A stretch of 64,000 nt of DNA from positions 32,001-96,000 of IMG/VR virus record IMGVR_UViG_3300001594_000003; one strand, given 5' to 3'. Origin of the DNA: a virus. Taxonomy: Duplodnaviria > Caudoviricetes. Within the stretch, counting starts at the first letter, position 1. Every line of letters begins with the position of its first letter. The notes beneath the pieces were generated by a model. It did no database searches and was not told where the DNA came from. It was given only the letters and a program-made list of their open reading frames with translations. Below are positions 1 through 63,803 of this stretch, in pieces. The translations under genes were made by a program, and so were the position numbers.

Positions 1-953
1 TGCCACTCTATGCCTCGGCGTTTTTTGTGCCTACGAGTGCGGGGATTCCATATATCTTGGAGGATATCTATCTGCGTGGCGGTTATCGTTCGGTAGCTAC
101 TATAGCGGATATGTATGCCATTAAACCCGCCTCCCGTAAGGCCGGTATGATGTGCTACGTTCGAGAAGACTCGACGTTGTACGAAATCAAAGGTCCGGCA
201 ACATCTGGTGATGCTGCGTGGACAAAAGCTGATCTGACTCGCTACGTCAACTATGAATGGCAGCAACCGCTTGCCATGGAAAAGGACGAAACGACCGGAG
301 CCTTCAAAGTCTCTATCGATGAAAAGCGCATCGTGCCTGTAATCGATGAAGCCTCTGCTGGTTGGATTCTTACTGCTGACCCTGAACTCGGACCTGTTTG
401 GGTTAAGCTGGATGCCCTGCCTGTGCGTGACGCTGCGAGCGTAGGGGATGCCCTAATACTCGACGCTCAGAAGAACCCAATCTGGGGTCAGATCAAAGCA
501 CTTCCCTCTACGGAAGGCGTTGAAACTGGCAGCTCGCTCGTTCTTGGTGCTGAAGGTCCTGTCTGGGGTTCGCCTCAGCAAGTCGGACGTATCACCATCA
601 ACGAAGCGATGGACGTCATTATCGTTGCAGGTACTGCGCAGAAGGCAGTCGCTATTCAGTGCAATACCGCGATGGTTCTGCGTCTTGCCGTTTCTCATCC
701 AGACCTGTACGTGGAGATTCATTCGACCAACGCGTACAACGACAGTAACCCGTACAGCTTCCTGTCTTCCTCTGTCAAGCTGGAAGATGATGGTGTAACT
801 ACACTGGAAGATGCTTCCGAGATGCGTGCGCGCCGTTACGGTTTCTTCTCTAACCCGAACGACGGTGACAAGAAGATGTACGTTCGAGTCGAGAACCGTG
901 GTCAGGAATCTGCGAACGTCACGCTGTCTATGATTCTGCTGCCTCTGGAGTAA
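1..953 (+). CDS. putative virion structural protein (5' end at window edge)
   Basis: Frame is open back to the window edge ('tg cca ctc tat' suggests the ATG begins 1 nt before the window). Three short repeats G..L....GP(V/I)W..L.ALP. Confidence 0.6.
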   Translation, partial: PLYASAFFVPTSAGIPYILEDIYLRGGYRSVATIADMYAIKPASRKAGMMCYVREDSTLYEIKGPATSGDAAWTKADLTRYVNYEWQQPLAMEKDETTGAFKVSIDEKRIVPVIDEASAGWILTADPELGPVWVKLDALPVRDAASVGDALILDAQKNPIWGQIKALPSTEGVETGSSLVLGAEGPVWGSPQQVGRITINEAMDVIIVAGTAQKAVAIQCNTAMVLRLAVSHPDLYVEIHSTNAYNDSNPYSFLSSSVKLEDDGVTTLEDASEMRARRYGFFSNPNDGDKKMYVRVENRGQESANVTLSMILLPLE

Positions 954-958
954 CAAGT

Positions 959-2176
959 ATGTGGATCGCCGAAGCCAAGGTAGACCCGAAGTTGTTTAGC
1001 TGGTTTACCTTCAACGGACCTAAGGCGATCAAGCTTGGACGTGACCAAGAGTTCAACCAAAAGCATCCACTTCAGGTGCGCCCGGGTGAACTCGTTGGTT
1101 TGAAGAAAGCAACACGCGGACCCGGGGCGGGCAACTATCAAGTTCTCCTCGGGCACGCTGTTCACGTTGTTTTCCGCAATGTACCGCAGAAGATGATCGA
1201 TAAGCTGGTCGATCATCTAAAGCCACACAAGGGTACACCGCCTGAGCATGGTCAGCTTCAAGAAGGTCAAAAGCGGAATCGCAAGGTTCAGATTCGAGAC
1301 AAGATCGAAAGCGACAAACAGCGGGATGATTTCTACCGTCCGACTGGTGCAGTACGGGAGCATTCTACCTACGACAGACTCAACTACCAGTGGCGCAAAG
1401 TCGTTCACGCCGGTACGCCCATTAAGAGTTTGAAGCAGGGTCGCTCCAAGTATTCACTGCAACAGGACGATATCGTCGGTGTTCGGTATATGACCAAAGC
1501 CCGAGGAGGCTTCATCATTCTGCCTAACGGTCAGCGCGTCAACATATCGCATGACACCTACGAATCCGTTGTTGGTAGCACCCGTATTCTGCCGAGCAGC
1601 AAGCAGCAGAAGGGTATTGTGATCATAGCGGATGTGAAGGCTGCACTGCCGAAGCAAACCCGCATTCGTAAGCCAAAAGAGGAAGAACCTGACGTCCGTC
1701 GCGTTCCTCGGGACGCTCACGAAAATCGCACCGGCACTCGCATTAAGCGAGACATTCAACGCGGCGGCCTCGTGTACAAGCATGAGGACATTCCTGACGT
1801 TGAAATGGAAGACGATGAAGATGAAGACCTTGACGATATAGCCGAGCAAGAAGAAAGCCCGACCGTACCGCTTAGTCATCAGCCTGTATCGGTCCTGAAA
1901 GTCGGTACGAAGATCAAATCCGCTAAGCGCAGTGAAAACGAGTTCATCGTGGTTGATGTTCGTCAGGATACGGGCTATACCGAGTTTTCCCTGTACAGTC
2001 CGTTAAAGAAAGACGTGCGTAAGCTGCGTATTGGTACTGATGTGGACATGAGCACTTATCGGTCTGTGATCCCTGCTGGTGAAGCTGACAAGTCCGAAGT
2101 TGCTGCAGGCAAACGAGCCTTCAACAAAGCTGTAAAGGATAAGAAGTTCACCATAGGTTCCATTCACGATCAGTGA
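959..2176 (+). CDS. hypothetical protein, basic with acidic tract; candidate head protein
   Basis: 405-aa ORF tightly packed in operon; N-terminus MWIAEA. Confidence 0.6.
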   Translation: MWIAEAKVDPKLFSWFTFNGPKAIKLGRDQEFNQKHPLQVRPGELVGLKKATRGPGAGNYQVLLGHAVHVVFRNVPQKMIDKLVDHLKPHKGTPPEHGQLQEGQKRNRKVQIRDKIESDKQRDDFYRPTGAVREHSTYDRLNYQWRKVVHAGTPIKSLKQGRSKYSLQQDDIVGVRYMTKARGGFIILPNGQRVNISHDTYESVVGSTRILPSSKQQKGIVIIADVKAALPKQTRIRKPKEEEPDVRRVPRDAHENRTGTRIKRDIQRGGLVYKHEDIPDVEMEDDEDEDLDDIAEQEESPTVPLSHQPVSVLKVGTKIKSAKRSENEFIVVDVRQDTGYTEFSLYSPLKKDVRKLRIGTDVDMSTYRSVIPAGEADKSEVAAGKRAFNKAVKDKKFTIGSIHDQ

Positions 2177-2182
2177 GTTCCC

Positions 2183-4108
2183 ATGAATATCAAGGCTATC
2201 AAAAGGAATCCACGGGCCGCAGCCGAGGCGATGACCCTCGGCGAGCTCCGTAAAACGCTCCAACATTTCGACTATGAATATCACGACCAGAATGCTTCGT
2301 CTATCGCTGATGAGGTGTACGATATCCTTCGTGATGTTCACGATGAGCGCAGTAAAAAGCCGTATGCTCGTGTGGGTTCTAAATCCACACATGCTGCACG
2401 TCGTAAGAAACTGCTGGTGCCCATGGGTAGCCTCTCCAAACTAAAGCCCGGCTCGTCTGGGCTTTCTGCGTTTCTGGAGAAAGGCCCCTTTGTTGTTTCA
2501 GACAAGGAAGATGGCATTAGCCTGCAACTTGTCTACCGTAATCACGATCTGGTTCAAGCTCTACAGCGTGGCGACGGTAAGATCGGTACTGATTCGTCCG
2601 GCGTCATTCCAGCATTGAATGTACCGAAGCGTATCAAAGAGAAGGACTTGATCGTCCGCGTCGAGTTCACCATGGGTAAGGCAACGTTCAGCAAACACTT
2701 CGATAAAGCCAGTGGCGGCGAGTTTGAAAACGCACGCAACGGTGCTGGTGGTCTGCTGAATCGTAACCAACCAAATCCTATCATATCCAAGATTAAGTGT
2801 ATTGCGCACGAAATCATGGAAGGTAAGAATGCACGCGTGGCTCCGTCTAAGCAGTTCGCATTCTTGAAAACTCTAGGCTTCGATGTGGTGCCGCACAAGG
2901 TATATCCGAAGCTGACTGAGAAGATACTGACCAACTTGCTGTCGTTGCGCAAGTCGCGCAGTCGCCGTGAGATTGACGGTATCGTTGTGGCACAAGATCG
3001 CACGTACACCGTGTCAGGCAAATACCCGACGCATGCCGTAGCGTTCAAGATCAATGATCTGGAATCCAGTGTGCTTGTAACCGTCAAAGACGTTGAGTGG
3101 AATGAATCGCGGTATGGTCGATTGGCACCTCGCGTTATCATCGAACCGACACGCATTGGCGGTGTAACTGTCACACACTTCACAGGACACAACGGGTTCT
3201 ACATAGAGCACGGTTACACGTCCAAGGTGAAATCACCTCCGTATTCTCCACGACCCATCAACAAAGGGGCCGTTATTCGAGCAGTGCGATCTGGTGACGT
3301 TATTCCGTACATAGTTGAAGTCGTGAAAGCAGCCAAGAAACCTTCTCAACCCTCAATTGAGTTTGAGTCGGATGGCGTTCACTACTACGCCTCTACCGGC
3401 GGCGATGACCGCAAGGCGAAGCTCCTGCTCAACTTCTTCAATGCCCTTGAAGTGGATGGCGTTAAGCGCGGCACTATTGACGTGCTGATCAAGAATGGAT
3501 TCGACACCATCAAGAAGATCATCACCGCCAAAGCCGCTGACTTTGAACAGATACCTCGCTTCGGTCACACCAAGGCAGTTACGATAGAGCGCAATATCCG
3601 CGATGCTTTGGCTAAGCGTGCAACGCTGCCCAAATTGGCTGCAGGCAGTGCGCTGTTCGGCGATAAGTTTGGCGAGTCTCGACTACGCGATCTGTTTGAT
3701 TCAGTACCAAACATCGTATACTCTGACCTGAGTAAGCGTGAATTGGTTGATGCCATTCAACAGGTACGTGGCTTCAAAGCTCTGGCTGTTCCTGCTGCTG
3801 AGGCTATACCTAAGTTCCGTCTTTTCTTGAAGAAGCTCGGTGTCAAGGTAGTTGCAGAACAGAAGGTTGCCATAGTTGCCGGTGGTAAGATGGAGGGTAA
3901 ATCCGTCCTGTTTACCTCAGTACGCGACAAGCAACTGCAAGAGTGGATCATAGCGCAAGGCGGTAAGATGGCATCCACCGTCAAATCAGCTAATTTACTC
4001 ATTGTTAAAGACCAATTCGCATCCAACAACAAAACAGAGTATGCGCAACAGAATGGCATTCCGGTAATGACGTTGGATCAGTTCCGAACCAAATACAAGG
4101 TGTCCTGA
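2183..4108 (+). CDS. ligA: NAD-dependent DNA ligase
   Basis: Adenylation motif SDKEDG (KxDG), RGDG, EIDGIV, AVAFK, OB-fold RSGDVIP, HhH region, C-terminal BRCT-like domain. Confidence 0.95.
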   Translation: MNIKAIKRNPRAAAEAMTLGELRKTLQHFDYEYHDQNASSIADEVYDILRDVHDERSKKPYARVGSKSTHAARRKKLLVPMGSLSKLKPGSSGLSAFLEKGPFVVSDKEDGISLQLVYRNHDLVQALQRGDGKIGTDSSGVIPALNVPKRIKEKDLIVRVEFTMGKATFSKHFDKASGGEFENARNGAGGLLNRNQPNPIISKIKCIAHEIMEGKNARVAPSKQFAFLKTLGFDVVPHKVYPKLTEKILTNLLSLRKSRSRREIDGIVVAQDRTYTVSGKYPTHAVAFKINDLESSVLVTVKDVEWNESRYGRLAPRVIIEPTRIGGVTVTHFTGHNGFYIEHGYTSKVKSPPYSPRPINKGAVIRAVRSGDVIPYIVEVVKAAKKPSQPSIEFESDGVHYYASTGGDDRKAKLLLNFFNALEVDGVKRGTIDVLIKNGFDTIKKIITAKAADFEQIPRFGHTKAVTIERNIRDALAKRATLPKLAAGSALFGDKFGESRLRDLFDSVPNIVYSDLSKRELVDAIQQVRGFKALAVPAAEAIPKFRLFLKKLGVKVVAEQKVAIVAGGKMEGKSVLFTSVRDKQLQEWIIAQGGKMASTVKSANLLIVKDQFASNNKTEYAQQNGIPVMTLDQFRTKYKVS

Positions 4109-4809
4109 TGACTCAGATCAGAATACAGTCTGATGGCTCGGTCGAATCGCTCTCAGCACGCGCACGAAACAGGCAACCCAATAGTCGACCTGCACGTCCC
4201 GACGATGTTAAAGTTGTTCGGGAAGATGCTCCGATTCCGACTACTGTACGTCCGCGTAATGAGCCGAAGACCCGTGTCATTCCCGAGCCTGAACCGAAGA
4301 AGCGTATGCGTAAGAGCGGCATTGCAGAAGAAGCATTCCGCAATCTCCTCGATAAAGAACGAGGCCGCTTCGCACGTAAGTCCTTTGCTGTGCCAAAGCC
4401 AATGCCCCAAGAACTCAAAGACCATGCCCTGTTTAACGAGGCTGTTGGTATCTTGCGTGAAATGGGCGTTGATCCTTACTCGGATAGTGGCCAAGGGCAG
4501 TTGGAGCAGAAGTTGGCCGAACTGTCCAACATTCAGAGTGACGACAATTCCGATGATCAGGAAGTCTCAACTGAATTGAGTCGTATGCGTGCCAATCTGA
4601 AATCGCGCATACTGGAACTCCGAGAGCTCCTCAAAGAACGAGCAGCCTTGAAGGCAGTAGAGCAGCGCGAATCTCGGGACGAACACCAGAACCGCAGATA
4701 CGAAAGCCTTACCGATCGCCTCAAATCAACAATCAAATACGTTCGCCGCCTTCGTCTCGACGTAGACAAGGCACGCAAGCGTATCGAACGATCCCGCCCT
4801 AAGGTTTAA
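4108..4809 (+). CDS. hypothetical coiled-coil protein
   Basis: TGATG coupling to ligA; N-terminus IxIxxDGSxESLSA shared with next gene. Confidence 0.7.
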   Translation: MTQIRIQSDGSVESLSARARNRQPNSRPARPDDVKVVREDAPIPTTVRPRNEPKTRVIPEPEPKKRMRKSGIAEEAFRNLLDKERGRFARKSFAVPKPMPQELKDHALFNEAVGILREMGVDPYSDSGQGQLEQKLAELSNIQSDDNSDDQEVSTELSRMRANLKSRILELRELLKERAALKAVEQRESRDEHQNRRYESLTDRLKSTIKYVRRLRLDVDKARKRIERSRPKV

Positions 4810-4811
4810 TC

Positions 4812-5813
4812 ATGGCCAAAATCACAATTCACAAAGACGGCAGTTTTGAATCTCTTGCAGCCGTTGATTATAAGCAAAAGATTGCTCAGGCTAAAGTTGA
4901 AATCAAAACGAACAAAGAGCTTCTTCGTGGTGAAAGACGGGCTCTTGCCACCCTTAAGCGTATTGCCATAATGAAGGCTTCCGCTGACGCAAACAGCGGA
5001 GAGAAGAAAGAGAAGTTTCTTTCCAGTATTAAGCATCTGCGTATGCAGAAGGGCATCTCTCCTAGAAGTACACTCAGTTCAGTCAAAGCACGTATTTTAC
5101 GATTGGAAAAATCCATCATTCGAGAGCAGAATAACATCGAGAAGTGGAAGGAAAAGCTCGGTATTGCCAAAGCTAAGCCTGTAGCCAAAAGTGTTCCTGA
5201 GAAGAAACCTGCGGCCAAGGTCGAGAAGTCCAGCCCCAAGCCACAGCCGAAAATCCGCATCGTACCGGCTTCCGACAAGAAGACCGGCAACACTCTGGCT
5301 AAGATGCAAGCGTCTTATGCCGAAATCACCGAGCAGTTGAAGCACGATATGCCTCCGTCGAAGAAATCGCGTCTTCGTTCTGAGCGTGCGCGTCTGCGCG
5401 TTATGATTGCCGAGTTGAAGCGCGGTCAGAGAGCTGCGAACAAGAAAGCTACCGAGAACAAGGCTAAGCCCAGCGGTAATATGGGATCATCTAAGTCCAA
5501 AGTAGTTCCTAAGTCTGGTATGGGTAGCGCTGCATCAAAAGCTACTGCTGACACAAAGTCGATACGGAAGGCTGTAGGCAGTGTCCTGTCGTTGGGTACC
5601 TTGACTGCAAAGGAAATGAAGAACATCCATTGGTCAAGGTCAGCCAAGGGTATCAAGCTCGAAAGCTCTCAGTACAACATCGTTGGTGCCATTAGCGAGA
5701 AAACAGCTAATAACCACAAAACATCGTTGGATGAGATTGAGGAATATCTCAAAGAGCACGGAAAGCCGCTCAAACCAAAGCGTGTGAAGCCATTCCGTTC
5801 CTTGTACGATTGA
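4812..5813 (+). CDS. very basic Lys-rich hypothetical protein
   Basis: 333-aa ORF; N-terminus IxIxxDGSxESLAA. Confidence 0.7.
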   Translation: MAKITIHKDGSFESLAAVDYKQKIAQAKVEIKTNKELLRGERRALATLKRIAIMKASADANSGEKKEKFLSSIKHLRMQKGISPRSTLSSVKARILRLEKSIIREQNNIEKWKEKLGIAKAKPVAKSVPEKKPAAKVEKSSPKPQPKIRIVPASDKKTGNTLAKMQASYAEITEQLKHDMPPSKKSRLRSERARLRVMIAELKRGQRAANKKATENKAKPSGNMGSSKSKVVPKSGMGSAASKATADTKSIRKAVGSVLSLGTLTAKEMKNIHWSRSAKGIKLESSQYNIVGAISEKTANNHKTSLDEIEEYLKEHGKPLKPKRVKPFRSLYD

Positions 5814-5823
5814 GGACGTAACA

Positions 5824-6021
5824 ATGCCATACAGTGGACCCGAAGACCTCCATCAGAACCTTCAAGAAATACTCCCGAAACATGCCCAAGAAATCTACGT
5901 GGCAGCGTTCAATAACGCACTAAAGGAATATGGAACTGAGGATGCTGCACGCAAGGTTGCCTGGTCTGCTGTTAAGCATAAGTACAAAAAGGGCTCCGGT
6001 CGCAAATGGGTACTAAAATGA
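5824..6021 (+). CDS. chaB: ChaB family protein
   Basis: MPY...LP.HAQEIY..AFN.A..EY..E..A..VAW.AVK..Y.K signature; GAGGA SD. Confidence 0.9.
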   Translation: MPYSGPEDLHQNLQEILPKHAQEIYVAAFNNALKEYGTEDAARKVAWSAVKHKYKKGSGRKWVLK

Positions 6022-6512
6022 GACTGCCAACCAATACGCGAGGCCAACGCAAACTGCACGCTTTCATCCATATAGTGTGTAAGTCAATTGCAGGTCATCC
6101 CGATGGTTATTTAGGTACAGGGAAGAACGTAACCACATCGCATTGCCACACGCGATCTGCCCAGTTCATCCAGTCTCGTGGTGCACAACACATGAACGAC
6201 TACATGGTTCTTGTCGGTAACCCCGGCATGTACGAAATCATGCACTCGTTGATTGCATCACACAATGAGACGGCTATACTCTCGGACACAGGAGGCGGCA
6301 GCTTCATCGATGGTGTGTACCGAGCTGCGTTTGCACAGAACGCCACAACAACTCTGGATTACGAAATCTACTGCGCGTACCGCATTCGTGATCTGATCGA
6401 ATTGAGCAAGCACTTGGACGAGTTTGACGCGCATTACCCTGCGCTACAACCACTAGAGTTTCACGGTAAGGACATACCGAAACTCGGACTTGCTCGCGTC
6501 AACCTGAAGTAA
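6018..6512 (+). CDS. hypothetical protein
   Basis: ATGA overlap with chaB stop favours start 6018. Confidence 0.6.
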   Translation: MRLPTNTRGQRKLHAFIHIVCKSIAGHPDGYLGTGKNVTTSHCHTRSAQFIQSRGAQHMNDYMVLVGNPGMYEIMHSLIASHNETAILSDTGGGSFIDGVYRAAFAQNATTTLDYEIYCAYRIRDLIELSKHLDEFDAHYPALQPLEFHGKDIPKLGLARVNLK

Positions 6513-6540
6513 TCATGGAAGTCTAACCAAGGACCATAGA

Positions 6541-7671
6541 ATGAAACTTGCTGTATACGCCATCGCAAAGAACGAAATCAAGCACGTTGACCGTTGGTAT
6601 GAGTGCGTTAAAGACGCAGACGAAGTGGTTGTTCTCGACACTGGGTCCACTGACGGTACTGCCGAGCGTCTTGCTGAACTTGGCGCTCGTGTAATTTCAA
6701 CCGAGTTAGTGCCGTTTCGCTTCGACACTGCACGGAACACCGCCTTGAACCTAGTGAGTCCTGAGATGGACTACTGCATGTTTATGGACCTCGATGAGAC
6801 CATGCCTGAAGGTTCTATTGGTAAGATCAGAGAACTGATCGATGCCTCGAACCAGATGATGTACGGCGTGCGCCTGGTGTTCACATTCGATGCAAACCGT
6901 CAGCCGCTAGTGTCGTATACGCGAGAAGCCATTCACACTCGAAAGGACTTCTACTGGAAGTATCCTGTCCATGAGTTGTTGATGTGCCACGAACCCGACT
7001 ACTCGTTCTCTGAGCTTCCGATCGATGTTTTCCATGAACCAGATAACGACAAGTCGCGTGGTTCGTACTTGGACTTGCTGGAAACCGCAGTTCAGGAGAA
7101 TCCAACGGATGCCCGCTGCGTTCAGTATCTCGGTCGCGAGTATATGTACCAAGGCCGCTACTTCGATGCCATCATGTGGTTGAAGCGTCACTTGGAGGTT
7201 GAAGTTCACGGGCCGTTCCGTAGTGAGTCCGCACGGTATATCAGCCAGTGTTATTACTCTATGGGCGACTCGCTTGAGAACTCCACAGACGAAGCCGAAG
7301 CATGGTTATATCGGGCATGTGCTGAGCAGAACGACGCACGCGAACCCTTCTGTGACCTTGCATATCTGTACTTCATCTGTGGTGAATATGAGTGTGCGAT
7401 CGGTGCTATCCGTTCTGCGTTGCGTGTGGAGTCTCCGCCGAACGTACCGATGATTCGCCGTGACGAACTCTATCAGCACTGGCCGTACCACATGCTTGCA
7501 GCTTGCTACGAGAATCTCGGAAACAAACGACAAGCACAACAAAACATTCAACTGGCGATGATGAACGCTAAGAGCATCGATGGTACTCTGGCGCAAGACA
7601 TTGCAAAGATATTGGGGCTGCAAGATGTTAGTAAGTCTATCGCTAGCCAGGAAGTTCCCTCGCCTCTCTAA
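6541..7671 (+). CDS. GT2 glycosyltransferase with C-terminal TPR repeats
   Basis: IAKNE, VVLDTGSTDGT, FDTARN, DLDE (DxD), VHE motif, followed by TPR-like helices. Confidence 0.9.
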   Translation: MKLAVYAIAKNEIKHVDRWYECVKDADEVVVLDTGSTDGTAERLAELGARVISTELVPFRFDTARNTALNLVSPEMDYCMFMDLDETMPEGSIGKIRELIDASNQMMYGVRLVFTFDANRQPLVSYTREAIHTRKDFYWKYPVHELLMCHEPDYSFSELPIDVFHEPDNDKSRGSYLDLLETAVQENPTDARCVQYLGREYMYQGRYFDAIMWLKRHLEVEVHGPFRSESARYISQCYYSMGDSLENSTDEAEAWLYRACAEQNDAREPFCDLAYLYFICGEYECAIGAIRSALRVESPPNVPMIRRDELYQHWPYHMLAACYENLGNKRQAQQNIQLAMMNAKSIDGTLAQDIAKILGLQDVSKSIASQEVPSPL

Positions 7672-9235
7672 GGAAAAGTTCCTCAAGCTTTCCTCTAAAG
7701 AGCAGACTGCCTACTTGGACGAATACAAGAAAAGCAGTCACCGCTTCCTGTTGAAGGGTAACAAGGAGACACCCGAAGCGGCTCCTGAGAAAAAGAAAAA
7801 GGGTAAGAAGAAAGGCAAGAAGAAGGATAAGATACGACGCTTGACTCGTAACGAATACGATGCCCTTAGTGATAAGGATCGCGAGCGTTACGATGCCAAG
7901 TACGCGAAGAACTCGCACAAGATGCGATTCAAGAAGGGCGGTAAGAAGGGTAAAAAGGACGTCACGATTGACGGACGAGAATCCAAGAAAGAAGCCCAAG
8001 AGCGCCGCAAGGAGCTAATGTCCAAAGTAGATACCCAGCGCAACGTCATTCACGACGACGGTGCTGGCGTTATCAACCGCGAGAGCGTTAAGGCCCTAGC
8101 TTTGATCAAGCCTGAGCACCTGCATCAGGGTGCTGCCAACATTGAGAACAACCGCCACGAAATTCGTGATCTGGTTGAACATCAGTTGCGCGATAAGCCT
8201 GAGCTTTCTCAACGCGGTTTTGCTGCTGTGCGCGATATGATGCACGGCGGCCTTCTAGAGGACAAGTCGCAGGAAGACGATGAGGATATCATCGAGGGTG
8301 AATTTGAGGAAATCCCGAATGCACCTGCCGTTGTCGATAACGAAGACGACGATATCCTAGAGGGTGAGTTTGAGGAAATAGAGGAAGCTCCAGAAAAGCC
8401 CTCGTTCTCCAAAGAGCGCCTCAAAGAGTTTGAGAAGGATGGTGGCAAGTTTAAGCCTCGCCGAGGTGATGACAAGCCATACATAAACGAGAACGGCGAG
8501 AAAGAGTATTACGACGACGGCGATCCTGTAACTGTCGGCGATATGCGTGAAATCGAATACGACGAGATACGCAAATCACGGGCCGGTGATCGTAAGAAGT
8601 CCAAGAGCAAGAAGAAGCGTGACCGTGCACACAAGGACTCCAAGAAGCAACGCGACGGCCATTCGTTGTTGAACCTGGTGGTCAAGACAGCTATCATTGG
8701 TGCCGGCATCGGTATGCTTGCCATGGGTGCGGGTCCCCTTGGTATGATCATCGGTCGAGGTATTCTCGAACTTTGGTCTGATATGCCTAGCTTGAGTGCA
8801 GCTAACGGTCTGACCGACGAAGACAGCGACACCGTAGACGAAATCATCACGCAGACCATTAGCTACATGCGCAACATGGACGTGGACGATCTTAAAGGTC
8901 AGTCCACCGAAATGTTTACTGCGTTGTCTGCTGCTCGTCCTGACGTTGACGTGTTCAACATCGTCTACTCCGCAGTGTTACCTCTTGTTCAAGGTAGACC
9001 ATCTGGTCGCCCTGGAAAAAACTTCTTCGGCAAGACTTTTTCCGACATGGAAACACTGGCCGACGCTACTGAACAAGCGCTACAGAAAGCCGGCGTGCTG
9101 ATCGAACATGAAAGGTATTCGGACGATATCGACAAGAGCCATCACTTCTATTGTCGTGACCGTAAGAAGACCATCGTTGCTCTCGGAATGTTCGAGCAGC
9201 ACCAACTCTATCACTTTGCCTTCGTAACAAGGTGA
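7625..9235 (+). CDS. hypothetical protein with basic N-terminus, acidic repeats and hydrophobic hairpin
   Basis: Start moved to MLVSLS (7625); DIIEGEFEEI/DILEGEFEEI repeat; Gly-rich hydrophobic segment. Confidence 0.65.
   Translation: MLVSLSLARKFPRLSKEKFLKLSSKEQTAYLDEYKKSSHRFLLKGNKETPEAAPEKKKKGKKKGKKKDKIRRLTRNEYDALSDKDRERYDAKYAKNSHKMRFKKGGKKGKKDVTIDGRESKKEAQERRKELMSKVDTQRNVIHDDGAGVINRESVKALALIKPEHLHQGAANIENNRHEIRDLVEHQLRDKPELSQRGFAAVRDMMHGGLLEDKSQEDDEDIIEGEFEEIPNAPAVVDNEDDDILEGEFEEIEEAPEKPSFSKERLKEFEKDGGKFKPRRGDDKPYINENGEKEYYDDGDPVTVGDMREIEYDEIRKSRAGDRKKSKSKKKRDRAHKDSKKQRDGHSLLNLVVKTAIIGAGIGMLAMGAGPLGMIIGRGILELWSDMPSLSAANGLTDEDSDTVDEIITQTISYMRNMDVDDLKGQSTEMFTALSAARPDVDVFNIVYSAVLPLVQGRPSGRPGKNFFGKTFSDMETLADATEQALQKAGVLIEHERYSDDIDKSHHFYCRDRKKTIVALGMFEQHQLYHFAFVTR
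8285..8379 (+). repeat. two-copy intragenic direct repeat encoding DI(I/L)EGEFEEI
   Basis: gatatcatcgagggtgaatttgaggaaat vs gatatcctagagggtgagtttgaggaaat. Confidence 0.85.
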
Positions 9236-9582
9236 CTCGAATGGAACGTATCAGCTACAAAACATTGAAAGATGAGGCGAAGCTGCCCATAGCTCAACGT
9301 AAGAACTGGGACGTTCTGTTGGGCAGTCGCCGTATAGCAACCATCAGTGCGCAGGATGACATATCGAGTGATCGTAGTCATTCCCTGCGTATCTGGAAAG
9401 CCAAGCTGTACCCGAATGCGTTCGATCCGTTCGACTTCCCGCATCACGATGACGAGGAAGAAAAGACACGGCCGCACGTTGTACTGAGCAATGGCCAACC
9501 GACTCTGGTAAACCCGCAACCCATGACAATGCGCGAAGCTCGTTCATGGATCAAACAAGTAGTCCATAGAGGTTCAGAATGA
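9232..9582 (+). CDS. hypothetical protein
   Basis: Coupled at both ends (GTGA/ATGA overlaps). Confidence 0.6.
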   Translation: MTRMERISYKTLKDEAKLPIAQRKNWDVLLGSRRIATISAQDDISSDRSHSLRIWKAKLYPNAFDPFDFPHHDDEEEKTRPHVVLSNGQPTLVNPQPMTMREARSWIKQVVHRGSE

Positions 9583-10319
9583 CTCGCATGGTATCCACTA
9601 GCTTCTCCATCGGGCAGGTTCCCGTAGAGATGCACAAAGCAGAACGGAAGAACGGTGCTGTTCGCCTAACACAAGAACAAGCTGGTGGTGACGCTCGCGT
9701 ACTGGACGCTCACATTTGGTTGCCAAAAGCAGCAGAGCATTACCGAATCAGCGGTGATATACGTGACTACATCGTAGTGCCTGTACCGAGCATCATCACA
9801 TCGATTCCGAACACTAACGGCGACTCTGCATCGTTTGCAGAGTTGACCAAGTTCAATCCCGAGTTCGGTCAGATGGCGTTTCGTACTTGGGTAGGGAAAC
9901 CCACTCACGTTGAGCACGATAACAAGGACATTACAAAGGCAAAGGGTGTCATTCTCGATACATATCTGCGCCCGCTGCCTCGTTTCCCAAAGTTCGCAAA
10001 GCTGGTCAAACTGCTCGCCTTCGACCGCACCAAAGATGCGTTCCTTGTGAACAAGATTCTCAAGCGTGAAGTCAGCACTTACTCGATGGGTATGTACTAT
10101 TCATCGTACACCTGCCCTATCTGCAATGCTCGCGTAGGTAAAGGCATTGGTATGCCGTGTCAGCATACGCGCCCACGTCGTCCAACGTATCAGTTGCCGG
10201 ATGGTCGCCTCGCATATCGTCAATGCGAAAACCTCGTAGGGTTTGAAACGAGCGTGGTTATGGACCCCGCTTACATTGTAGCCCAATCGGACGTCATCTG
10301 GGACGTTGCTGGCTTCTAA
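9579..10319 (+). CDS. putative prohead maturation protease (HK97/assemblin-like fold) with Cys/His insert
   Basis: N.NGD, THVEH (putative catalytic His), YSMG, C-terminal ETSVVMDPAY (E-x-S-x-V-x-x-P-A); CPIC...CQH insertion. Confidence 0.75.
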   Translation: MTRMVSTSFSIGQVPVEMHKAERKNGAVRLTQEQAGGDARVLDAHIWLPKAAEHYRISGDIRDYIVVPVPSIITSIPNTNGDSASFAELTKFNPEFGQMAFRTWVGKPTHVEHDNKDITKAKGVILDTYLRPLPRFPKFAKLVKLLAFDRTKDAFLVNKILKREVSTYSMGMYYSSYTCPICNARVGKGIGMPCQHTRPRRPTYQLPDGRLAYRQCENLVGFETSVVMDPAYIVAQSDVIWDVAGF

Positions 10320-10329
10320 GGAAATGGTT

Positions 10330-10845
10330 ATGCAGATAACACTGTCGTTCAAGGCTGAGGCTGCCAATAAGCTGGAAATGATCCCGTACACAGGTAACAA
10401 CGGTCTGTACGTTTCAATGGTACCTCGTGACGATATGCTGGATGATGTTATGAAGCTCGCTGAGGAGCTAGGCATCACACCTGTACGCGAGGCACTTCAT
10501 ACAACTGTGATCTACAGTAAGAAACCAGCAGGTGAGTTGCCTACACCTGATCCTGAGCGACAGGTTACTGCTGTCATCACAAGCGTCGATAGTTGGGTTG
10601 GACACAACGGCAAAACCTACATCGTGTTGAAGCTGGCAAGCGAAGCACTGCTGTTTATGCACGGTGATTACAGCCGACGCGGCGCAGAAGCCACATTCAT
10701 TCCATACGCACCGCACATAACGCTGTCTGATGAGGTTGAAGTAGACGCGGAAATGAAGGTTCGCATGGAGAAGCTGAACAAGTATCTGAACTACGATCCC
10801 AAGCTGATCTATCTGACCAACGAGCGCATCGGCGATCTGGACTGA
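10330..10845 (+). CDS. acb1: Acb1-like 2H phosphoesterase (anti-CBASS nuclease, T4 gp57B family)
   Basis: GLYV, PVREALHTTVIYS and YAPHITLS (two HxT motifs), IVLKLASEAL; colinear with T4 Acb1 as recalled; TAAGGA SD. Confidence 0.85.
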   Translation: MQITLSFKAEAANKLEMIPYTGNNGLYVSMVPRDDMLDDVMKLAEELGITPVREALHTTVIYSKKPAGELPTPDPERQVTAVITSVDSWVGHNGKTYIVLKLASEALLFMHGDYSRRGAEATFIPYAPHITLSDEVEVDAEMKVRMEKLNKYLNYDPKLIYLTNERIGDLD

Positions 10846-10847
10846 TT

Positions 10848-10967
10848 ATGGCTGTTCGTAAAAAGAAAAAGAAGTTTGTGAAGATCAAGGTCAAAATACC
10901 AAAACAATACGTTCGTGTGGTTGAGACTGATCGCATGAACGTACAAGTGGAGTCACCGCCCTTATGA
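10848..10967 (+). CDS. small basic protein, 39 aa (below ORF-track cutoff)
   Basis: MAVRKKKKKFVKIKVKIPKQYVRVVETDRMNVQVESPPL; fills the gap exactly; stop overlaps next ATG. Confidence 0.6.
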   Translation: MAVRKKKKKFVKIKVKIPKQYVRVVETDRMNVQVESPPL

Positions 10968-11398
10968 GCATGACGTGTGCAACACCATTTCGAGCGAAGC
11001 CTCCGAGGCCACCTGTGCCCGAAGCGCCTATGCCTCGCTATGGTATCGGTCGCCTCGACACATACGATACCAGCATTCGTGACAATAAACTGAACTTCGA
11101 TATCGTCATGGGTTCGCAGCTTGAGGCAGTTGAACCTAATGCTACCTTTAGCTTGCCGAACACTGGTGACAATATCTACAGCTACTTTATGTCGCCAGTG
11201 GAGTATGGCACCGTATCGTTCAAAGCGAACGGCGGCTTTACTGGTGGTTGGGATGGCGCGTCCTGGCCTCTGGATGATATGGGTGACGAATACGGCCCAG
11301 TTACCATCACGTATGAAGGCGCAGAGTGGTATATGTATCGCACTGATTGGCCTGGTGCTGCTGCAACCACTTATACCGTAAACTTCTCCAATGTCTAA
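10964..11398 (+). CDS. stand-alone GGWDGASWP-domain protein (likely virion)
   Basis: Same domain occurs twice in 15769..19428. Confidence 0.75.
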   Translation: MSMTCATPFRAKPPRPPVPEAPMPRYGIGRLDTYDTSIRDNKLNFDIVMGSQLEAVEPNATFSLPNTGDNIYSYFMSPVEYGTVSFKANGGFTGGWDGASWPLDDMGDEYGPVTITYEGAEWYMYRTDWPGAAATTYTVNFSNV

Positions 11399-11636
11399 GA
11401 TCAAGATCAGACTTCACGACGCTAGACCAGGTCACCACGGTGAGCGCGCCACGATCATCGAGGAACCGCACGTTCGTTTGCCTAAAGCAAAGATCAAGAA
11501 CATGCTCAAGTCGAAGCTACGTGAGGAGAAAGATGGAGTGCAGCAGTCTCTTGGGCCGAGAGACGCTACACCTGAGAATACCTACGTTTCCCATGTAAAC
11601 TGGAAAAGCAGGCTTGAGAAGGGCGATCCCTACTAG
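11391..11636 (+). CDS. hypothetical protein
   Basis: 81-aa ORF overlapping previous stop. Confidence 0.55.
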   Translation: MSKIKIRLHDARPGHHGERATIIEEPHVRLPKAKIKNMLKSKLREEKDGVQQSLGPRDATPENTYVSHVNWKSRLEKGDPY

Positions 11637-11644
11637 GAGGCCGT

Positions 11645-12025
11645 ATGGCCGAGACAATACCGTGCGCGTGTGGCAATCCTGTGCCATGTTATCTTCGCGC
11701 TAATGAATCGCAGACGCCTTGCCCTAAAGCATCGCTCGCTGCTAAGTACACGCAACGGTGCATTCACTGCGAGTGCCTGCCTTGTAATTGCTACGCAGGT
11801 TCGTTGCCTAATGCTCCCGTTTACGGTGGTGCTATACGCTCGATAGCTGAGCTAATGATACGTTGCGCCAAAGAGAGCGCTGTGGTCATTTCAGCCAACG
11901 CATGTACAGCCCAAGAGATAGCGGAAGCCCGAGCAGATCAACGGCTTTTCGTTGATCCTAGCGGTGCTGGTTATGTTCTCCAAAGTCGCGCTTGGTTAGA
12001 CAAGCTGCGCAACTGTAAGTGCTGA
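11645..12025 (+). CDS. Cys-rich hypothetical protein
   Basis: AGGAGG SD; multiple CxC/CxxC motifs. Confidence 0.65.
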   Translation: MAETIPCACGNPVPCYLRANESQTPCPKASLAAKYTQRCIHCECLPCNCYAGSLPNAPVYGGAIRSIAELMIRCAKESAVVISANACTAQEIAEARADQRLFVDPSGAGYVLQSRAWLDKLRNCKC

Positions 12026-58266: not shown

Positions 58267-60315
58267 ATGAAACCAGAAGAACTCCTTGCTGCTATGCAGC
58301 CACTAGCGGAAGCCGTAGCAAAGGCGACCGCGGAATACACGAAAGAAGTTGCTTCTTATCGTGAGGAACTAGCACAGACCAAGGAAGAACTTCAACGAGT
58401 ACGGACGCAACTTGAAGAACTAGCAGGTGCAACACCAAAGCCGACACCCGAGCAACCAAAGCCAGAGCCTACTCCTGAACCGGAGCCAACACCTAAGCCT
58501 GATGTACCTGCGACCGGTGCCATCAAGATCAATGATTTCGATGGCGGTGATTGGCTGAACGGTGTCTGGATCAAGGATGATACCCGCCGGGTATCCATAC
58601 CGCAAACTGACCTGTTCACAGTTGGTGATGAAGTAACACTAGCTGATGGTGAACCCCGTCGCGTCAAAGTTGTTGAAGACGTTGGCGATAACATCAGTCT
58701 GGAACTCACTGGCGGCAAGATCGACCCTAACGTTGCAGGTGCACCCAACAACGTAACTAAGGTAGCAGACGGTGAGCCGGATGATCTGCCTGAGCCGGGA
58801 CCTGAGCAGCCAGCTCCAATACCAGAAGTACCAAAGCCTGAGCCGAAGCCGGACGTTGAAGGGTTTACCTCCAGCATCAACAACTTCACGGATGACAAGT
58901 ATTGGGATCGCGGTATCTGGCGCGGCGATAAGGCTGGTATCAGTATCACTAACTCGGCAGACAATCGTAAGCACTTCGTAGAGGGTGCTCCGGTTAAACT
59001 TGCCACTGGCGAGATTCGTCGAGTAACGTGGGCTCAAGAGGTTGGTGACAACATCAGCCTTTTCTTGGAAGGTACGACCTTGGATGCTTCTAAGGTCGGC
59101 TCACCCAACAAGATCGTATTGGCAACTGACGAAGCACCTCAGCCAGACCCAAAGCCGACAGAGCCGGAACCTACACCTACTCCAGCACCTACGCCGATCC
59201 CACCTGTTTCTGGTGTTGACGCTCAACTGCCTGCGTTCGGTCTAAACTTGGGTGGTCTGGGTAATAACCCTTGGCTTGCAGCTATCAATGGGCCGGATGG
59301 GGTTCGAGGCGATACACACTACTCGATCACCAAAGAGCCGCACATTGCGTGCTATGCGAAACACTTGAACGGTAAGCCGTGGATTGCGCGTCTGCCTATC
59401 GCTGCTGAGTACCTGATCACCAAGGATGGAGACAAGCTCAACCAGCGCTATGTGAACGACATTCTGGGTGTGATGAACATCGTCCACAAGTACGGCGGTA
59501 AAGTGCTGTTGGATATGCACAACTACTACCGCTTCTGGAAGAAAGTACCCAGCCCTGTTGCGGGTCGTGATATGAAGAACCACAACGACCACCTTGCAAA
59601 GGGTTCGGCTGTGTGGACTGTCATCAACGAGCCGGATTGTCCTGTCACCAACAAAGGATTCGCGCAACTGTGGGTAGACATTCTGATGGGCCCAATAGGT
59701 AAGCATCCTGCGATGTTTATGGCTGGGCTTGTGAATGAACCACACAACCGCGGCACCGACAAGGTTGATATCAACTCGAAGTGGCCTGTATGTGCTCAAC
59801 TGTGCGTCAACGAAATCCGTAAGGTCAACAAGACTATCTGGATTACAGTTGCGGGCAACTTCTACAGCAGCGCCAAGATGTGGACCAGCGTCAGCAAGGA
59901 CCTGCACAAGATCACTGATCCGCAAGACAAGCTGATCTTTGAAGCTCACCAGTACATGGACAAGCAGGGTAATGGTGGCGGGGCGTGGAACTCCCACACC
60001 GATCCGGTTGCTGCCGATCAAGGTACCAAGGACTGGGCAGGGTATGCCGCCTGGGCTATAGAGAAGAACGTGCGTGGTATGTGCGGTGAAGTAGGTGGTC
60101 CCGCTACTGCAGGTCAGTATTTGACTGCTGTTCGCCGCTTGTGTGATCTTATGGCATCACACCGTATGCCAGTAGTGTTTTGGATGGGCGGTACTGGCCA
60201 GAACGACAGCTACGCTAACGGTATGAACACCAAGGCAGGCGTACTCAAACCAAATGCTGCGCCTCTGATGGAGCGCATCGGACGCACGTTCCCATCGTAC
60301 GGGCCGAAGAAGTAA
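58267..60315 (+). CDS. GH5 glycoside hydrolase (endoglucanase-like) with N-terminal coiled coil, Pro-rich linkers and two repeated putative binding modules
   Basis: RLP, LLDMHNY, NEPH (acid/base), FEAHQY, GEVG (nucleophile). Confidence 0.88.
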   Translation: MKPEELLAAMQPLAEAVAKATAEYTKEVASYREELAQTKEELQRVRTQLEELAGATPKPTPEQPKPEPTPEPEPTPKPDVPATGAIKINDFDGGDWLNGVWIKDDTRRVSIPQTDLFTVGDEVTLADGEPRRVKVVEDVGDNISLELTGGKIDPNVAGAPNNVTKVADGEPDDLPEPGPEQPAPIPEVPKPEPKPDVEGFTSSINNFTDDKYWDRGIWRGDKAGISITNSADNRKHFVEGAPVKLATGEIRRVTWAQEVGDNISLFLEGTTLDASKVGSPNKIVLATDEAPQPDPKPTEPEPTPTPAPTPIPPVSGVDAQLPAFGLNLGGLGNNPWLAAINGPDGVRGDTHYSITKEPHIACYAKHLNGKPWIARLPIAAEYLITKDGDKLNQRYVNDILGVMNIVHKYGGKVLLDMHNYYRFWKKVPSPVAGRDMKNHNDHLAKGSAVWTVINEPDCPVTNKGFAQLWVDILMGPIGKHPAMFMAGLVNEPHNRGTDKVDINSKWPVCAQLCVNEIRKVNKTIWITVAGNFYSSAKMWTSVSKDLHKITDPQDKLIFEAHQYMDKQGNGGGAWNSHTDPVAADQGTKDWAGYAAWAIEKNVRGMCGEVGGPATAGQYLTAVRRLCDLMASHRMPVVFWMGGTGQNDSYANGMNTKAGVLKPNAAPLMERIGRTFPSYGPKK

Positions 60316-61091: not shown

Positions 61092-61178
61092 ATGAGAACT
61101 ATCCAGAATCGACTGGCTAGATCGCTGCTGCGTGCTGTACGCAAACGAGCAGAGCACCAGAATTACAAGGAGATTTGA
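61092..61178 (+). CDS. possible 28-aa basic peptide
   Basis: AAGGA SD; MRTIQNRLARSLLRAVRKRAEHQNYKEI; stop abuts next ATG. Confidence 0.35.
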   Translation: MRTIQNRLARSLLRAVRKRAEHQNYKEI

Positions 61179-61179
61179 A

Positions 61180-61467
61180 ATGGAATCGTGGATCAGCAAA
61201 GCGCTTGGATACGCCAAGTATGCAGGTGCTGCCGTCTTAGCGTTAGGGGTTGCAGTTCTACTTCGCAAACAGCCAGTGGCTAAACCGAAGGAGAAGATCG
61301 AGAAGGGACCTGATATGAAGGTCGCTTATGACAATGCCGAGCAACTCGACAAGAAAGAAGAAGTAACCAAAGAACAGCACGGCAAAATAGAAGAAGTGCT
61401 GCAACCAAAGCCAATCACAAACAAACCTCTGCGCGATGCAGTAGATGACTGGAATCGCGACGCTTGA
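61180..61467 (+). CDS. single-TM protein, i-spanin-like
   Basis: AAGGAG SD; TM AGAAVLALGVAVLL followed by charged helix. Confidence 0.5.
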   Translation: MESWISKALGYAKYAGAAVLALGVAVLLRKQPVAKPKEKIEKGPDMKVAYDNAEQLDKKEEVTKEQHGKIEEVLQPKPITNKPLRDAVDDWNRDA

Positions 61468-61480
61468 CTTGGAGACTAAC

Positions 61481-61879
61481 ATGGAACTTCTGGCAGATGC
61501 AGTAAAAAATCTGTTGGGCGTTGAACCATCCATGGCACTCACATACTTGCTATGTGTACTCATCGGTGTAGGTATCAACTGGGCTAAATCCAGCAGGGAA
61601 GCCAACATTAGCCTTATGTCGTACTGGACACGATATCCGATTCGTTCGCAAACGGCTATCATCGGTACAATCTCTGCTTACCTATTCACGGTTATCACTG
61701 ATCCTGAATCAGGCAAGCTGACGTATATCGCTATCGGGTATGCGTGCGACAACCTGCTCAACAAGGTCCCCGTAGAGGGCAAAGCTGCGGATATCATCGC
61801 ACGGCAAGAAGCCGAAGTGATTGTTCAAGAGCAGCGCATAAGGGAATTGACCCAATCGCTCCCACAACAAGGTAGTTAA
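61481..61879 (+). CDS. putative holin
   Basis: GGAG SD; 2-3 hydrophobic segments, charged C-tail; lysis-gene context. Confidence 0.55.
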   Translation: MELLADAVKNLLGVEPSMALTYLLCVLIGVGINWAKSSREANISLMSYWTRYPIRSQTAIIGTISAYLFTVITDPESGKLTYIAIGYACDNLLNKVPVEGKAADIIARQEAEVIVQEQRIRELTQSLPQQGS

Positions 61880-61881
61880 GC

Positions 61882-62346
61882 ATGAAACTGTTCGCGTTGT
61901 TACTCTCGGTGTTCCTAGTTGGGTGTTCGAGCAACCTACCGAAGCCTGAAATCAGTGATCGCTACTCCAAGCTGGAGACTATGGATCACCTGACTGCTAA
62001 AGCCGCAGTGTTGCCTGCTGTGCCTCAGATCCGCGTAACGCCTATTGACGGCAAAGAGTACGCGGTGCTGGATGCAGACGGCATGAACCAGCTCAATCAG
62101 TTCAGGCAAGCGGCAAAGCAGAACACCGAGGCAGTTGCGCTTTTGATCGAGGCACAGAACGGGCTAATAGATCAGCGCAACCTCATGTTGCAGAATCTTC
62201 GGCTAGAGGAATCCCGCTCCAACTTCTTCGCTGAGAAGTACATGGAGTCGGAGAACTTGCGACGCGAACAGTACGACCAATTTCAAATGGAGCTGATCAT
62301 CCACAAGGTGACGCTCCTTCTATTCGGCGCATTGGTGGTGTTCTGA
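61882..62346 (+). CDS. lipoprotein with C-terminal hydrophobic anchor, spanin-like
   Basis: Lipobox LVGC then SS; helical body; C-terminal VTLLLFGALVVF. Confidence 0.65.
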   Translation: MKLFALLLSVFLVGCSSNLPKPEISDRYSKLETMDHLTAKAAVLPAVPQIRVTPIDGKEYAVLDADGMNQLNQFRQAAKQNTEAVALLIEAQNGLIDQRNLMLQNLRLEESRSNFFAEKYMESENLRREQYDQFQMELIIHKVTLLLFGALVVF

Positions 62347-62810
62347 TGGACGAAACGATAAAGATCGGCAAGAACTTCACACTCGCCGACGTACAGTTTA
62401 ACGAGATTGCAGTGCGTCTTGGTATGAGCAACGACGTGGTCGATGATCAAGTCATATCGAACGCGCGGCGTCTCGCCAAGAACGTACTGGACCCACTGAT
62501 TGAACAGTTCGGTCATGTGTTCATCACATCGTGGTATCGCAACCAGAATCTGGAGCGCGAGTACAGCCGCAACACCTTTGCTCGCTGGTGTATCGACAAT
62601 CGATTGCCGATCCGAGACGAAGCATGGCAGCAGTACATAGACCAGAAACAGCATCACACTGGTTGTGCCGTGACTATCCGCGCAAAGGACAATGACGAAC
62701 TGTTCGACTACATCAAGGACAATCTGGAGTTCGATACGCTAATGCACAAGAAGCATTGGATCAGTGTCAGCTTCACCCAGAATAACCAAAAACGGGCTAT
62801 TGGTAGATGA
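62346..62810 (+). CDS. peptidase M15-like protein with degenerate Zn ligands
   Basis: NFTL, LDPL...FG.V.ITSWYR, QH..G.AV(T)I, W.(S)VS. Confidence 0.7.
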   Translation: MDETIKIGKNFTLADVQFNEIAVRLGMSNDVVDDQVISNARRLAKNVLDPLIEQFGHVFITSWYRNQNLEREYSRNTFARWCIDNRLPIRDEAWQQYIDQKQHHTGCAVTIRAKDNDELFDYIKDNLEFDTLMHKKHWISVSFTQNNQKRAIGR

Positions 62811-63112: not shown

Positions 63113-63803
63113 GCAGAGCGGCTGCGTAGTCTTTCGCTACAACCGCAACTTCGATTACGAGATACTGCTGGTCAAGTCCAGTGATGGTAAAGAGTGGGTA
63201 TTTCCGAAGGGTGGTGTAGAGTCTGATCTGACTGCGAAAGAGTCTGCCGCCAAAGAAGTGTATGAGGAAGCAGGCGTAGCGGGTAACATCCTGCAGACAC
63301 TCGGCAAGTACGAGTACAAGAAGAAGGGTCGCGACCAGAAAGTCACCATGTACTCGATGCTGTACACGCACGACACACCAGACTGGCCGGAGAAAGGACT
63401 ACGCAAGCGCAAGTGGTTCAGTTTTAAAGAAGCGCAGAAGAAACTACCGAAGATACTGCGTCCATTCCTGAAGGAGTTGAAGAACGGGAATGCGTTGGCG
63501 TTGAGTGCAAGCAATACGCTATCGCACTTAGCTGACCATTTCCGTGAACTGCCCGTGCTCAGCCAACACCCGTCAGAGGTTACCGTGGACGACGCAGACA
63601 ACTGCGTGTACATATCGGTATCGTTACCTAACGGCGATTTGCGATTGCAGATTGAGGAATGGGAACAGCACCCACTGTCACAAGCTCTTACCGTACACTA
63701 TGAGTTTTCGGGCGAAGACGAGAATCACGGCCACTTCAAGCGCAGCTCGCTGGATAGAGTGGTTGGTCACGTTGCACGTATCGTCGGAAAGTATGTAAGT
63801 TAG
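63099..63803 (+). CDS. Nudix hydrolase (DIPP/Ap6A-like) with extra C-terminal domain
   Basis: WVFPKGGVE...AAKEVYEEAG Nudix box; WPE...R.RKWF. Confidence 0.9.
   Translation: MKVRKQSGCVVFRYNRNFDYEILLVKSSDGKEWVFPKGGVESDLTAKESAAKEVYEEAGVAGNILQTLGKYEYKKKGRDQKVTMYSMLYTHDTPDWPEKGLRKRKWFSFKEAQKKLPKILRPFLKELKNGNALALSASNTLSHLADHFRELPVLSQHPSEVTVDDADNCVYISVSLPNGDLRLQIEEWEQHPLSQALTVHYEFSGEDENHGHFKRSSLDRVVGHVARIVGKYVS

Follow-up and report, generated by a model that had tools for sequence, protein, structure and literature searches.

A candidate capsid-targeting and cleavage leader on two basic proteins of a PaBG-related jumbo phage

The internal head proteins of phage T4 carry capsid-targeting propeptides of 10–19 residues that are removed by the protease gp21; the propeptides are shared, and the mature parts differ (PMC9026906). 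In phiKZ and SPN3US, the gp21-like proteases gp175 and gp245 process many head and ejection proteins by removing N-terminal propeptides, and they cleave scaffold-like proteins at multiple positions (PMC9026906, PMC10052503). The phiKZ enzyme cuts at S/A-X-E (PMC9026906); PMC10052503 reports only a Ser preference at P1'. Herpesvirus assemblin sites are cut after Ala, as in VQA-S and YLQA-T of pseudorabies virus (PMC4498786). Here we analyzed a window of 64,000 nucleotides, bases 32001-96000 of one 148,991-bp virus record (IMG/VR IMGVR_UViG_3300001594_000003), which is part of a giant (jumbo) phage related to Pseudomonas phage PaBG. Two basic proteins encoded from window positions 4108 and 4812, upstream of a prohead protease gene at 9579, begin with a common 17-residue leader ending in E-[AS]-[VLIT]-[AS]-[AS]. 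On balance, and by analogy, we favor the reading that this is a capsid-targeting and cleavage leader like those of the T4 internal proteins. The observed basis is that the leader family is conserved beyond the bodies it precedes, that its terminal motif is concentrated in the head modules of three relatives, and that the protease model has the gp21 fold.

The leader of the two proteins reads M-x-x-I-x-I-x-x-D-G-S-[VF]-E-S-L-[SA]-A. In the first, orphan basic protein 1 (233 residues; 4108..4809, plus strand), it spans nt 4108-4158 with the core E-S-L-S-A at nt 4144-4158, and in the second, orphan basic protein 2 (333 residues; 4812..5813, plus strand), it spans nt 4812-4862 with the core E-S-L-A-A at nt 4848-4862. 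The core, the last five residues, contains the [SA]-x-[SA] motif that a preliminary description of this DNA had proposed as a leader motif common to nine proteins, and the N-termini it quoted, IRIQSDGSVESLSA at 4108 and ITIHKDGSFESLAA at 4812, are indeed encoded there. The 4108 protein has an isoelectric point (pI) of 10.1 and 22% Lys plus Arg, and the 4812 protein a pI of 10.4 and 23%. The latter is the ortholog of PaBG_00220; it has no Pfam or PHROG family and no usable atlas match, a tblastn search against isolated phages found only PaBG, and a metagenome scan with this protein returned no relatives.

We built a leader profile from the first 22 residues of ten family members. Within the contig it matches only the 4108 (E 4e-11) and 4812 (E 3e-12) proteins, and elsewhere it finds one PaBG protein and three in G002. 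The relatives compared, all with complete or nearly complete genomes, were PaBG, whose public record is assembled from seven pieces and for which 310 proteins were called, and the IMG/VR loci L006 (record G001, 228 kb) and L013 (record G002, complete, 277.6 kb). The family is present in PaBG, L006, and L013 as two to four tandem copies in the interval between the ligase and glycosyltransferase genes, with the leader consensus M-x-x-I-x-I-x-x-D-[GD]-[ST]-F-E-[AST]-[VLIT]-[AS]-x, and additional leader-family members were recovered from metagenomes. Glu directly precedes the small-residue block in 13 of 14 leaders. The bodies behind the leaders have pI values of 8-11.4 and 18-26% Lys plus Arg and fall into two unrelated types, one short (136-144 residues) and one long and Lys-rich. 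As in T4, a short N-terminal leader is thus common to divergent basic proteins.

The leaders are 70-83% identical, and the bodies are less than 30% identical or have no detectable relation. Set beside proteases that are ~78-81% identical between genomes, this contrast indicates, at the level of sequence, selection on the leader itself. The genes are adjacent paralogs in two to four copies depending on the genome, which could suggest that the shared leader is a functionless remnant of a recent tandem duplication or gene conversion. A remnant would hardly keep its identity over such diverged bodies both within and between genomes, and we regard this explanation as highly improbable.

The leader core recurs in the head genes of the relatives. 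The pattern E[AS][VLIMT][AS][AST] occurs 15 times in the PaBG proteome, and eight of these fall in gp79-83, a contiguous gene run that accounts for 2.2% of residues: one in gp79 (near the C-terminus), one in the major capsid protein (MCP), five in the acidic gp82, and one in gp83. Three further hits lie in the portal, gp220, and gp197 (near the C-terminus). As a guard against circularity, a scoring matrix was trained only on non-PaBG leaders (positions 13-17). Eight of its top 20 hits in the PaBG proteome fall in gp79-83 (binomial P 5e-9), compared with four of 20 for the window without Glu; eight matrix windows were tried on PaBG. Shuffling each protein's own composition gave 0.42 expected hits against 8 observed, and for the block without Glu 4.6 against 21. 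With each genome's own leaders excluded, the enrichment was replicated: the head module accounts for five of the top 10 hits in G002 (P 1.5e-6) and for seven of the top 20 in G001 (P 5e-7). In PaBG, G001, and G002, then, the leader ends at the same kind of site as is found in the MCP and the scaffold-like protein, and portal sites near residues 42 and 527 are also conserved.

The PaBG MCP contains R-E-E-A-V-A-A at residues 73-79 of 368. The motif begins at residue 75, a position that matches the reported loss of about 20% of this protein on maturation (PMC7412058, section 3.2). Among 119 homologs, the motif lies in a variable linker that a conserved N-terminal part precedes and a conserved R-R-E follows. 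The 11 closest sequences all have it there, as do 19 of 27 when every strong hit is counted, and Glu stands before the block in 10 of the 11 closest; outside the PaBG clade, the MCP alignment by itself does not fix a cleavage site. One metagenomic MCP reads G-S-M-E-S-L-S-A, nearly identical to the 4108 leader. PaBG gp83, which mass spectrometry places in the virion (PMC7412058, Table 1), begins with a short I-x-I segment followed by L-L-E-A-V-A-A, with the motif at residue 9. The variant of the motif tracks the genome. G002 has E-A-T-A-A in the MCP linker, in two leaders, and in the Acb1-like leader, and E-S-T-A-A in its ortholog of the 7625 protein (see below), and PaBG has E-A-V-A-A in the MCP, gp82, gp83, and gp220.

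Two side observations concern these head genes. PaBG_00082 (gp82; L004 2919-4850, orthologs in L022 and L023) is an acidic protein of 643-675 residues that adjoins the MCP and holds 14 small-residue blocks, against 2.3 expected. It is labeled in databases as 'ATPase' (PHROG) or 'ribosomal-like'; with these blocks it looks like a multiply cleaved scaffold protein, the scaffold role being read from its position and acidity only. G002 also has a second, short MCP match (G002:C1:186866-187054, L021; 44% identity over residues 252-314), which sits in a 128-residue open frame far from the head module.

An alternative is that the leader is a structural or interaction element, such as a β-hairpin for oligomerization or DNA binding, in a basic, lineage-specific protein family that stays outside the virion, and that its likeness to the head sites is coincidental. 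The segment I-x-I-x-x-D-G-S-F does resemble a strand-turn-strand, the family adjoins a DNA ligase gene, and the gel proteome of PaBG lacks its orthologs (PMC7412058). Nor does the 22-residue profile at full length link the leader to the head, as it reaches neither PaBG gp83 nor other head proteins, nor gp219. Coincidence fits poorly with a five-residue core enriched in the head modules of three genomes, with a genome-specific variant (T in G002, V in PaBG) common to leaders and MCP linker, and with one leader placed on both the 136-144-residue and the long Lys-rich bodies. We consider this alternative unlikely, although it deserves serious weight.

The 9579 gene (9579..10319, plus strand) encodes the prohead (head maturation) protease, as the preliminary description had proposed. 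It matches PHROG 18299, 'head maturation protease', at E 3e-109 and is 81% identical to the PaBG protease. An AlphaFold model from an 88-sequence alignment has a mean predicted local distance difference test score (pLDDT) of 88.9 and a predicted template modeling score (pTM) of 0.86. Foldseek against the PDB returned chains B, A, and C of 5JBL (T4 gp21) as the top three matches (E 1e-3 to 2e-3, with only chain B below E 1e-3; probability 1.00; TM by target 0.60-0.63), and the next match had a probability of 0.02. Since T4 gp21 is the only significant PDB match of the model, the protein is, as modeled, a member of the gp21 protease fold. Residues H113 and S169, the putative catalytic His and Ser, are invariant in the 88 homologs, as are N78, G123, G171, E223, and S225. 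By sequence, the protease found no Pfam family at E up to 10 except a chance-level hit and nothing in the PDB, 5JBL included. Many homologs (P0162, P0165, P0177, P0190, and others) are 600-870 residues long, with a match that breaks in two around query residue 105-115, in the vicinity of the invariant H113; judging from the alignments, these look like intein-type insertions. The model also exceeds the crystallized T4 gp21 chains by ~80 residues, and a Cys cluster, C-P-I-C ... C-x-H, lies at residues ~178-197 (window 10110-10170) with C179 nearly invariant. The cluster and extra length may represent a zinc-binding insert.

In the favored reading, the leader consists of a front half, the short I-x-I ... 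D-G-S-F segment, and an end, E-[AS]-[VLIT]-[AS]-[AS], that would be the recognition motif of the 9579 protease. By analogy with the T4 capsid-targeting sequences, the leader would direct the 4108 and 4812 proteins to the prohead core as it assembles and would then be cut off during head maturation, and the basic, probably DNA-associated proteins would remain in the head. Targeting, cleavage, and virion presence of the two proteins are all inferred from this analogy.

Several points weigh against this reading. The window's contig has no head-gene module, its own MCP and head genes lying elsewhere, so the motif enrichment is demonstrated in relatives only. Gene calling on the contig relied on a self-trained codon model plus a simple rule for ribosome-binding sites (168 genes, 165 of at least 50 residues), and both the calls and the start codons are heuristic. 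The five-residue window was picked post hoc, before its replication in two further genomes, and matrices that included leader positions 11-12 (S-F) gave no head-module enrichment. The motif itself is imperfect. Glu is replaced by Lys in one leader ortholog, L006_3745, and by Gln in the gp83-like leader of G002; in distant MCPs the linker motif is altered or lacks Glu; and false positives occur, e.g., at the N-terminus of the SbcD nuclease. Lastly, the PaBG gel proteome comprises 14 Coomassie bands, and gp219-221 are not listed among them (PMC7412058, Table 1); these proteins are either not abundant in PaBG virions or were missed by the gel proteome.

Compared to T4, the leader is of similar size (17 residues, against 10-19), it likewise stands on divergent, basic, non-essential-looking proteins, its end resembles the MCP and scaffold sites (here in the relatives), and the protease has the gp21 fold. 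Unlike T4, where the conserved information (L/I-x-E) precedes the cut, here it follows Glu as the small-residue block, and the protease gene comes ~4-5 kb downstream of the leader genes, which are also distant from the MCP gene. The likeness to T4 is one of leader architecture; packaging and cleavage here are predicted, and we claim no sequence similarity to the T4 leaders. Like the phiKZ sites, the leaders here read S/T-[FV]-E, a loose fit to S/A-X-E. In contrast to phiKZ and SPN3US, the phage belongs to a PaBG-like lineage, in group 2.2 of the T4 superfamily (PMC7824862), its propeptides would be far shorter, and the small-residue block after Glu is absent from the published motifs as summarized in PMC9026906. 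For PaBG itself, gp219-gp221, gp83, and gp226 are direct orthologs in synteny. Proteolytic processing in PaBG has been reported for the MCP and for other proteins (PMC7412058); that paper describes no motif, leader, or targeting signal, and these genes are annotated there as hypothetical. What stands is a T4-like leader and putative cleavage motif, marked by a distinctive small-residue block and belonging to a new lineage, which from sequence can be attached with confidence to the 4108 and 4812 proteins and possibly also to the Acb1-like enzyme and the 7625 protein.

Which bond would be cut is finely poised: a cut directly after Glu has about an even chance, judged from sequence patterns, and a cut after the small-residue block somewhat less. 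The preliminary description had assigned the protease a small-residue specificity unlike that of the Glu-specific enzymes, and the sequence patterns do not establish this distinction, because with Glu directly before the block in nearly all leaders and in nearly all of the closest MCPs, a T4-like cut after Glu fits equally well. Inclusion of Glu doubles the enrichment in PaBG, from four to eight of the top 20 hits, and Glu is the residue after which the T4 and phiKZ enzymes of the gp21 fold cleave (PMC9026906). In favor of the bond past the block, the block persists without Glu in L006_3745 (Lys) and in the gp83-like leader of G002 and one MCP (Gln). It is likewise kept without Glu in several MCP clades, which read M-[ST]-A-x-A-A, or [LIV]-[AS]-S-S in distant ones, in all Acb1-like leaders, and in orthologs of PaBG gp197, which retain A-V-A-A after either E or V. 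Herpesvirus assemblins and T4 gp21 share a fold. If the cut follows the block, its P3 aliphatic residue or Thr (V/L/I/T), small P2 residue, and Ala or Ser at P1 would resemble the assemblin sites (PMC4498786). The Foldseek match of the protease model is T4 gp21 rather than an assemblin, and the hosts and capsid proteins differ.

Two further proteins of the locus could be cargo. The orphan 536-residue protein encoded at 7625..9235 (plus strand), two genes upstream of the protease, has charged regions and a hydrophobic helix followed by the small-residue block PSLSA (nt 8786-8800), with a second block, TALSA, at nt 8918-8932. It has no family match in Pfam or PHROG. In an alignment of five orthologs, the block after the hydrophobic helix is kept in all, and the first block of the G002 ortholog, I-E-S-T-A-A, contains the motif in full. 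On these sequence features, the 7625 protein is a candidate processed head or core protein, with PSLSA as a plausible internal cleavage site. Separately, the annotated start of its PaBG counterpart, PaBG_00224 (292 residues; L002 about 9220-10614), is seemingly too late; the frame extends upstream to M-L-L-S-L-S-L-A and then aligns full-length with the 7625 protein and its orthologs.

The gene directly downstream of the protease (10330..10845, plus strand) encodes a 171-residue 2H phosphoesterase. It matches Pfam Acb1 (PF23474) with 66.5 bits against a cut-off of 27, and its two H-x-T motifs, H57/T59 and H129/T131, are invariant in 24 homologs; by sequence, it is a member of the Acb1 family of 2H phosphodiesterases that counter cyclic-oligonucleotide-based antiphage signaling systems (CBASS). 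The Acb1 match begins at residue 24 and the PHROG match at residue 22. Ahead of them is an N-terminal appendage of about 14-23 residues (nt 10330-10398), which holds A-x-A-A-N-K-L and reads, in the 24 homologs, M-x-I-x-L-S-M-K, a variable loop, and A-x-A-A-N-K-L, without a conserved Glu. A reading of this N-terminus as an opening strand of the 2H fold was rejected, since Pfam, PHROG, and AlphaFold point to an extra unstructured appendage, with residues 1-14 at pLDDT <50 and the fold beginning near residue 26. An appendage that is conserved and predicted to be unstructured fits a linear signal, although the window's copy reads K-A-E-A-A-N and so departs from the five-residue motif; the Acb1-like enzyme is a possible but unproven head cargo. 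A broader proposal would be that in the PaBG-like clade a modular N-terminal label, M-x-I-x-L plus (E)-A-x-A-A, read by the gp21-fold protease, loads both the basic internal proteins and an Acb1-type anti-CBASS nuclease, that the enzyme is injected with the DNA, and that the cut falls after the block, as in herpesviruses. We regard this combination as quite unlikely.

The preliminary description went further still: all nine of its proteins would be tagged head cargo, and the protease would cut after [SA]-x-[SA] and not after Glu. The peptides it quoted are real. The N-termini MWIAEA (959), MLVSLS (7625), MTRMVSTS (9579), MQITLSFKAEA (10330), MRLQLRMTAEA (60395), and MIITLSMA (62807) are all present, as are the internal peptides PSLSA (nt 8786), TALSA (nt 8918), and ALALSA (nt 63492), the last at a Nudix joint. 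The shared motif proved to be at chance level. Of the 165 proteins predicted on the 149-kb contig, 20/27/34/38% have an [SA]-x-[SA] that starts in their first 12/16/20/25 residues, compared with 21/26/32/38% in internal windows of the same size, for N-terminal to internal ratios of 0.96-1.07. The forms E[SA].[SA], [SA].E[SA], and ..E[SA] are also not enriched at the N-termini of contig proteins. In favor of the nine-protein model, 24 of 24 Acb1-like homologs keep A-x-A-A-N-K-L with a varying residue before it, the Glu-less forms of MCP clades and gp197 described above point the same way, the block without Glu remains enriched in gp79-83 (13 observed against 4.2 expected), and herpesvirus assemblins cut after Ala (PMC4498786). 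Against it stand, besides the chance-level motif, the gain in head-module hits (four to eight of the top 20) when Glu is added, the lack of a block in head-site form in the 959, 60395, and 62807 proteins and at the protease N-terminus, the modeling of that N-terminus as a strand of the fold, and the absence of any sign of virion membership in the ligase, glycosyltransferase, and Nudix proteins. We judge this model improbable. Only the 4108 and 4812 proteins share a real leader; the other seven are at noise level in the profile search, which does not reach the 959, 7625, 9579, 10330, 60395, or 62807 proteins. As putative packaging or cleavage signals, the 4108 and 4812 leaders retain their support, ending in the motif that marks the MCP linker, scaffold-like, and virion proteins of the relatives, and PSLSA of the 7625 protein and the Acb1 appendage remain candidates. 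There is no evidence for the 959 protein, the protease N-terminus, 60395, 62807, or the Nudix joint, whose motifs are best treated as chance; on present evidence, the remaining proteins of the list are outside the system, with the Acb1-like enzyme and the internal 7625 site as possible exceptions.

In the protease, residues 4-11 are modeled as a β-strand of the fold, which speaks against MTRMVSTS as a leader. The 959 protein (405 residues; 959..2176, plus strand; a KMPT-N-domain protein by Pfam, with the domain from residue 13) starts M-W-I-A-E-A-K-V, without the five-residue motif, and is not counted in the system. Its A-E-A-K-V is kept in close relatives, and A-E-A is absent from the 45%-identity ortholog in L014; its best match to the leader-core matrix is internal, at residue 202, and ranks 135th in the contig. 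By eye, its KMPT-N-type N-terminal domain resembles PaBG_00107 (L004 22241-22795), a small protein whose gene sits between those for the portal and the terminase. A-E-A within the first 16 residues is ~5-fold enriched (P ~4e-4, post hoc), in an incoherent set comprising the ligase, two M-A-E-A starts, and others. The N-termini of the 60395 and 62807 proteins are conserved to the same degree as the remainder of each sequence, and the motif is absent from them. These two proteins stand on either side of a lysis cassette at window 61132-62810, recognized by its likeness to PaBG_00273-276, which contains two small membrane proteins, a spanin-like lipoprotein (L-V-G-C lipobox), and an M15 peptidase.

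If confirmed, the favored reading would supply jumbo phages of the PaBG type with a predicted motif for maturation cleavage and with a capsid-targeting leader that is short and portable, neither of which is described for them in the literature we searched. It would explain the orphan basic genes as encoding internal head proteins, single out the scaffold-like protein, and allow the mature termini of the MCP and portal to be predicted. The leader would also offer a simple tag for packaging foreign proteins, as with the T4 leader. The Acb1 appendage raises the idea that an anti-CBASS enzyme is delivered pre-made, and the small-residue block prompts one to ask if a protease of the gp21 fold has moved from recognizing Glu to recognizing small residues.

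The wider neighborhood resembles PaBG in gene order, with window positions 1-12,000 collinear with PaBG_00216 to PaBG_00231; at the DNA level, the window has no match among the isolated phages searched. Between the genes already described, all on the plus strand, lie a NAD-dependent DNA ligase (2183-4108), a ChaB protein (5824-6021), an open reading frame without a family match (6006-6512), and a GT2 glycosyltransferase with tetratricopeptide (TPR) repeats (6541-7671). A conserved 113-residue protein (9241..9582; PHROG 31356, function unknown) lies between the 7625 protein and the protease and is a member of the conserved gene neighborhood only. Further downstream, window 58267-60315 encodes a 682-residue protein with a GH5 cellulase-family domain (E 4e-25) after a coiled, Ala/Glu-rich N-terminal part, which may be a virion-borne polysaccharide depolymerase.

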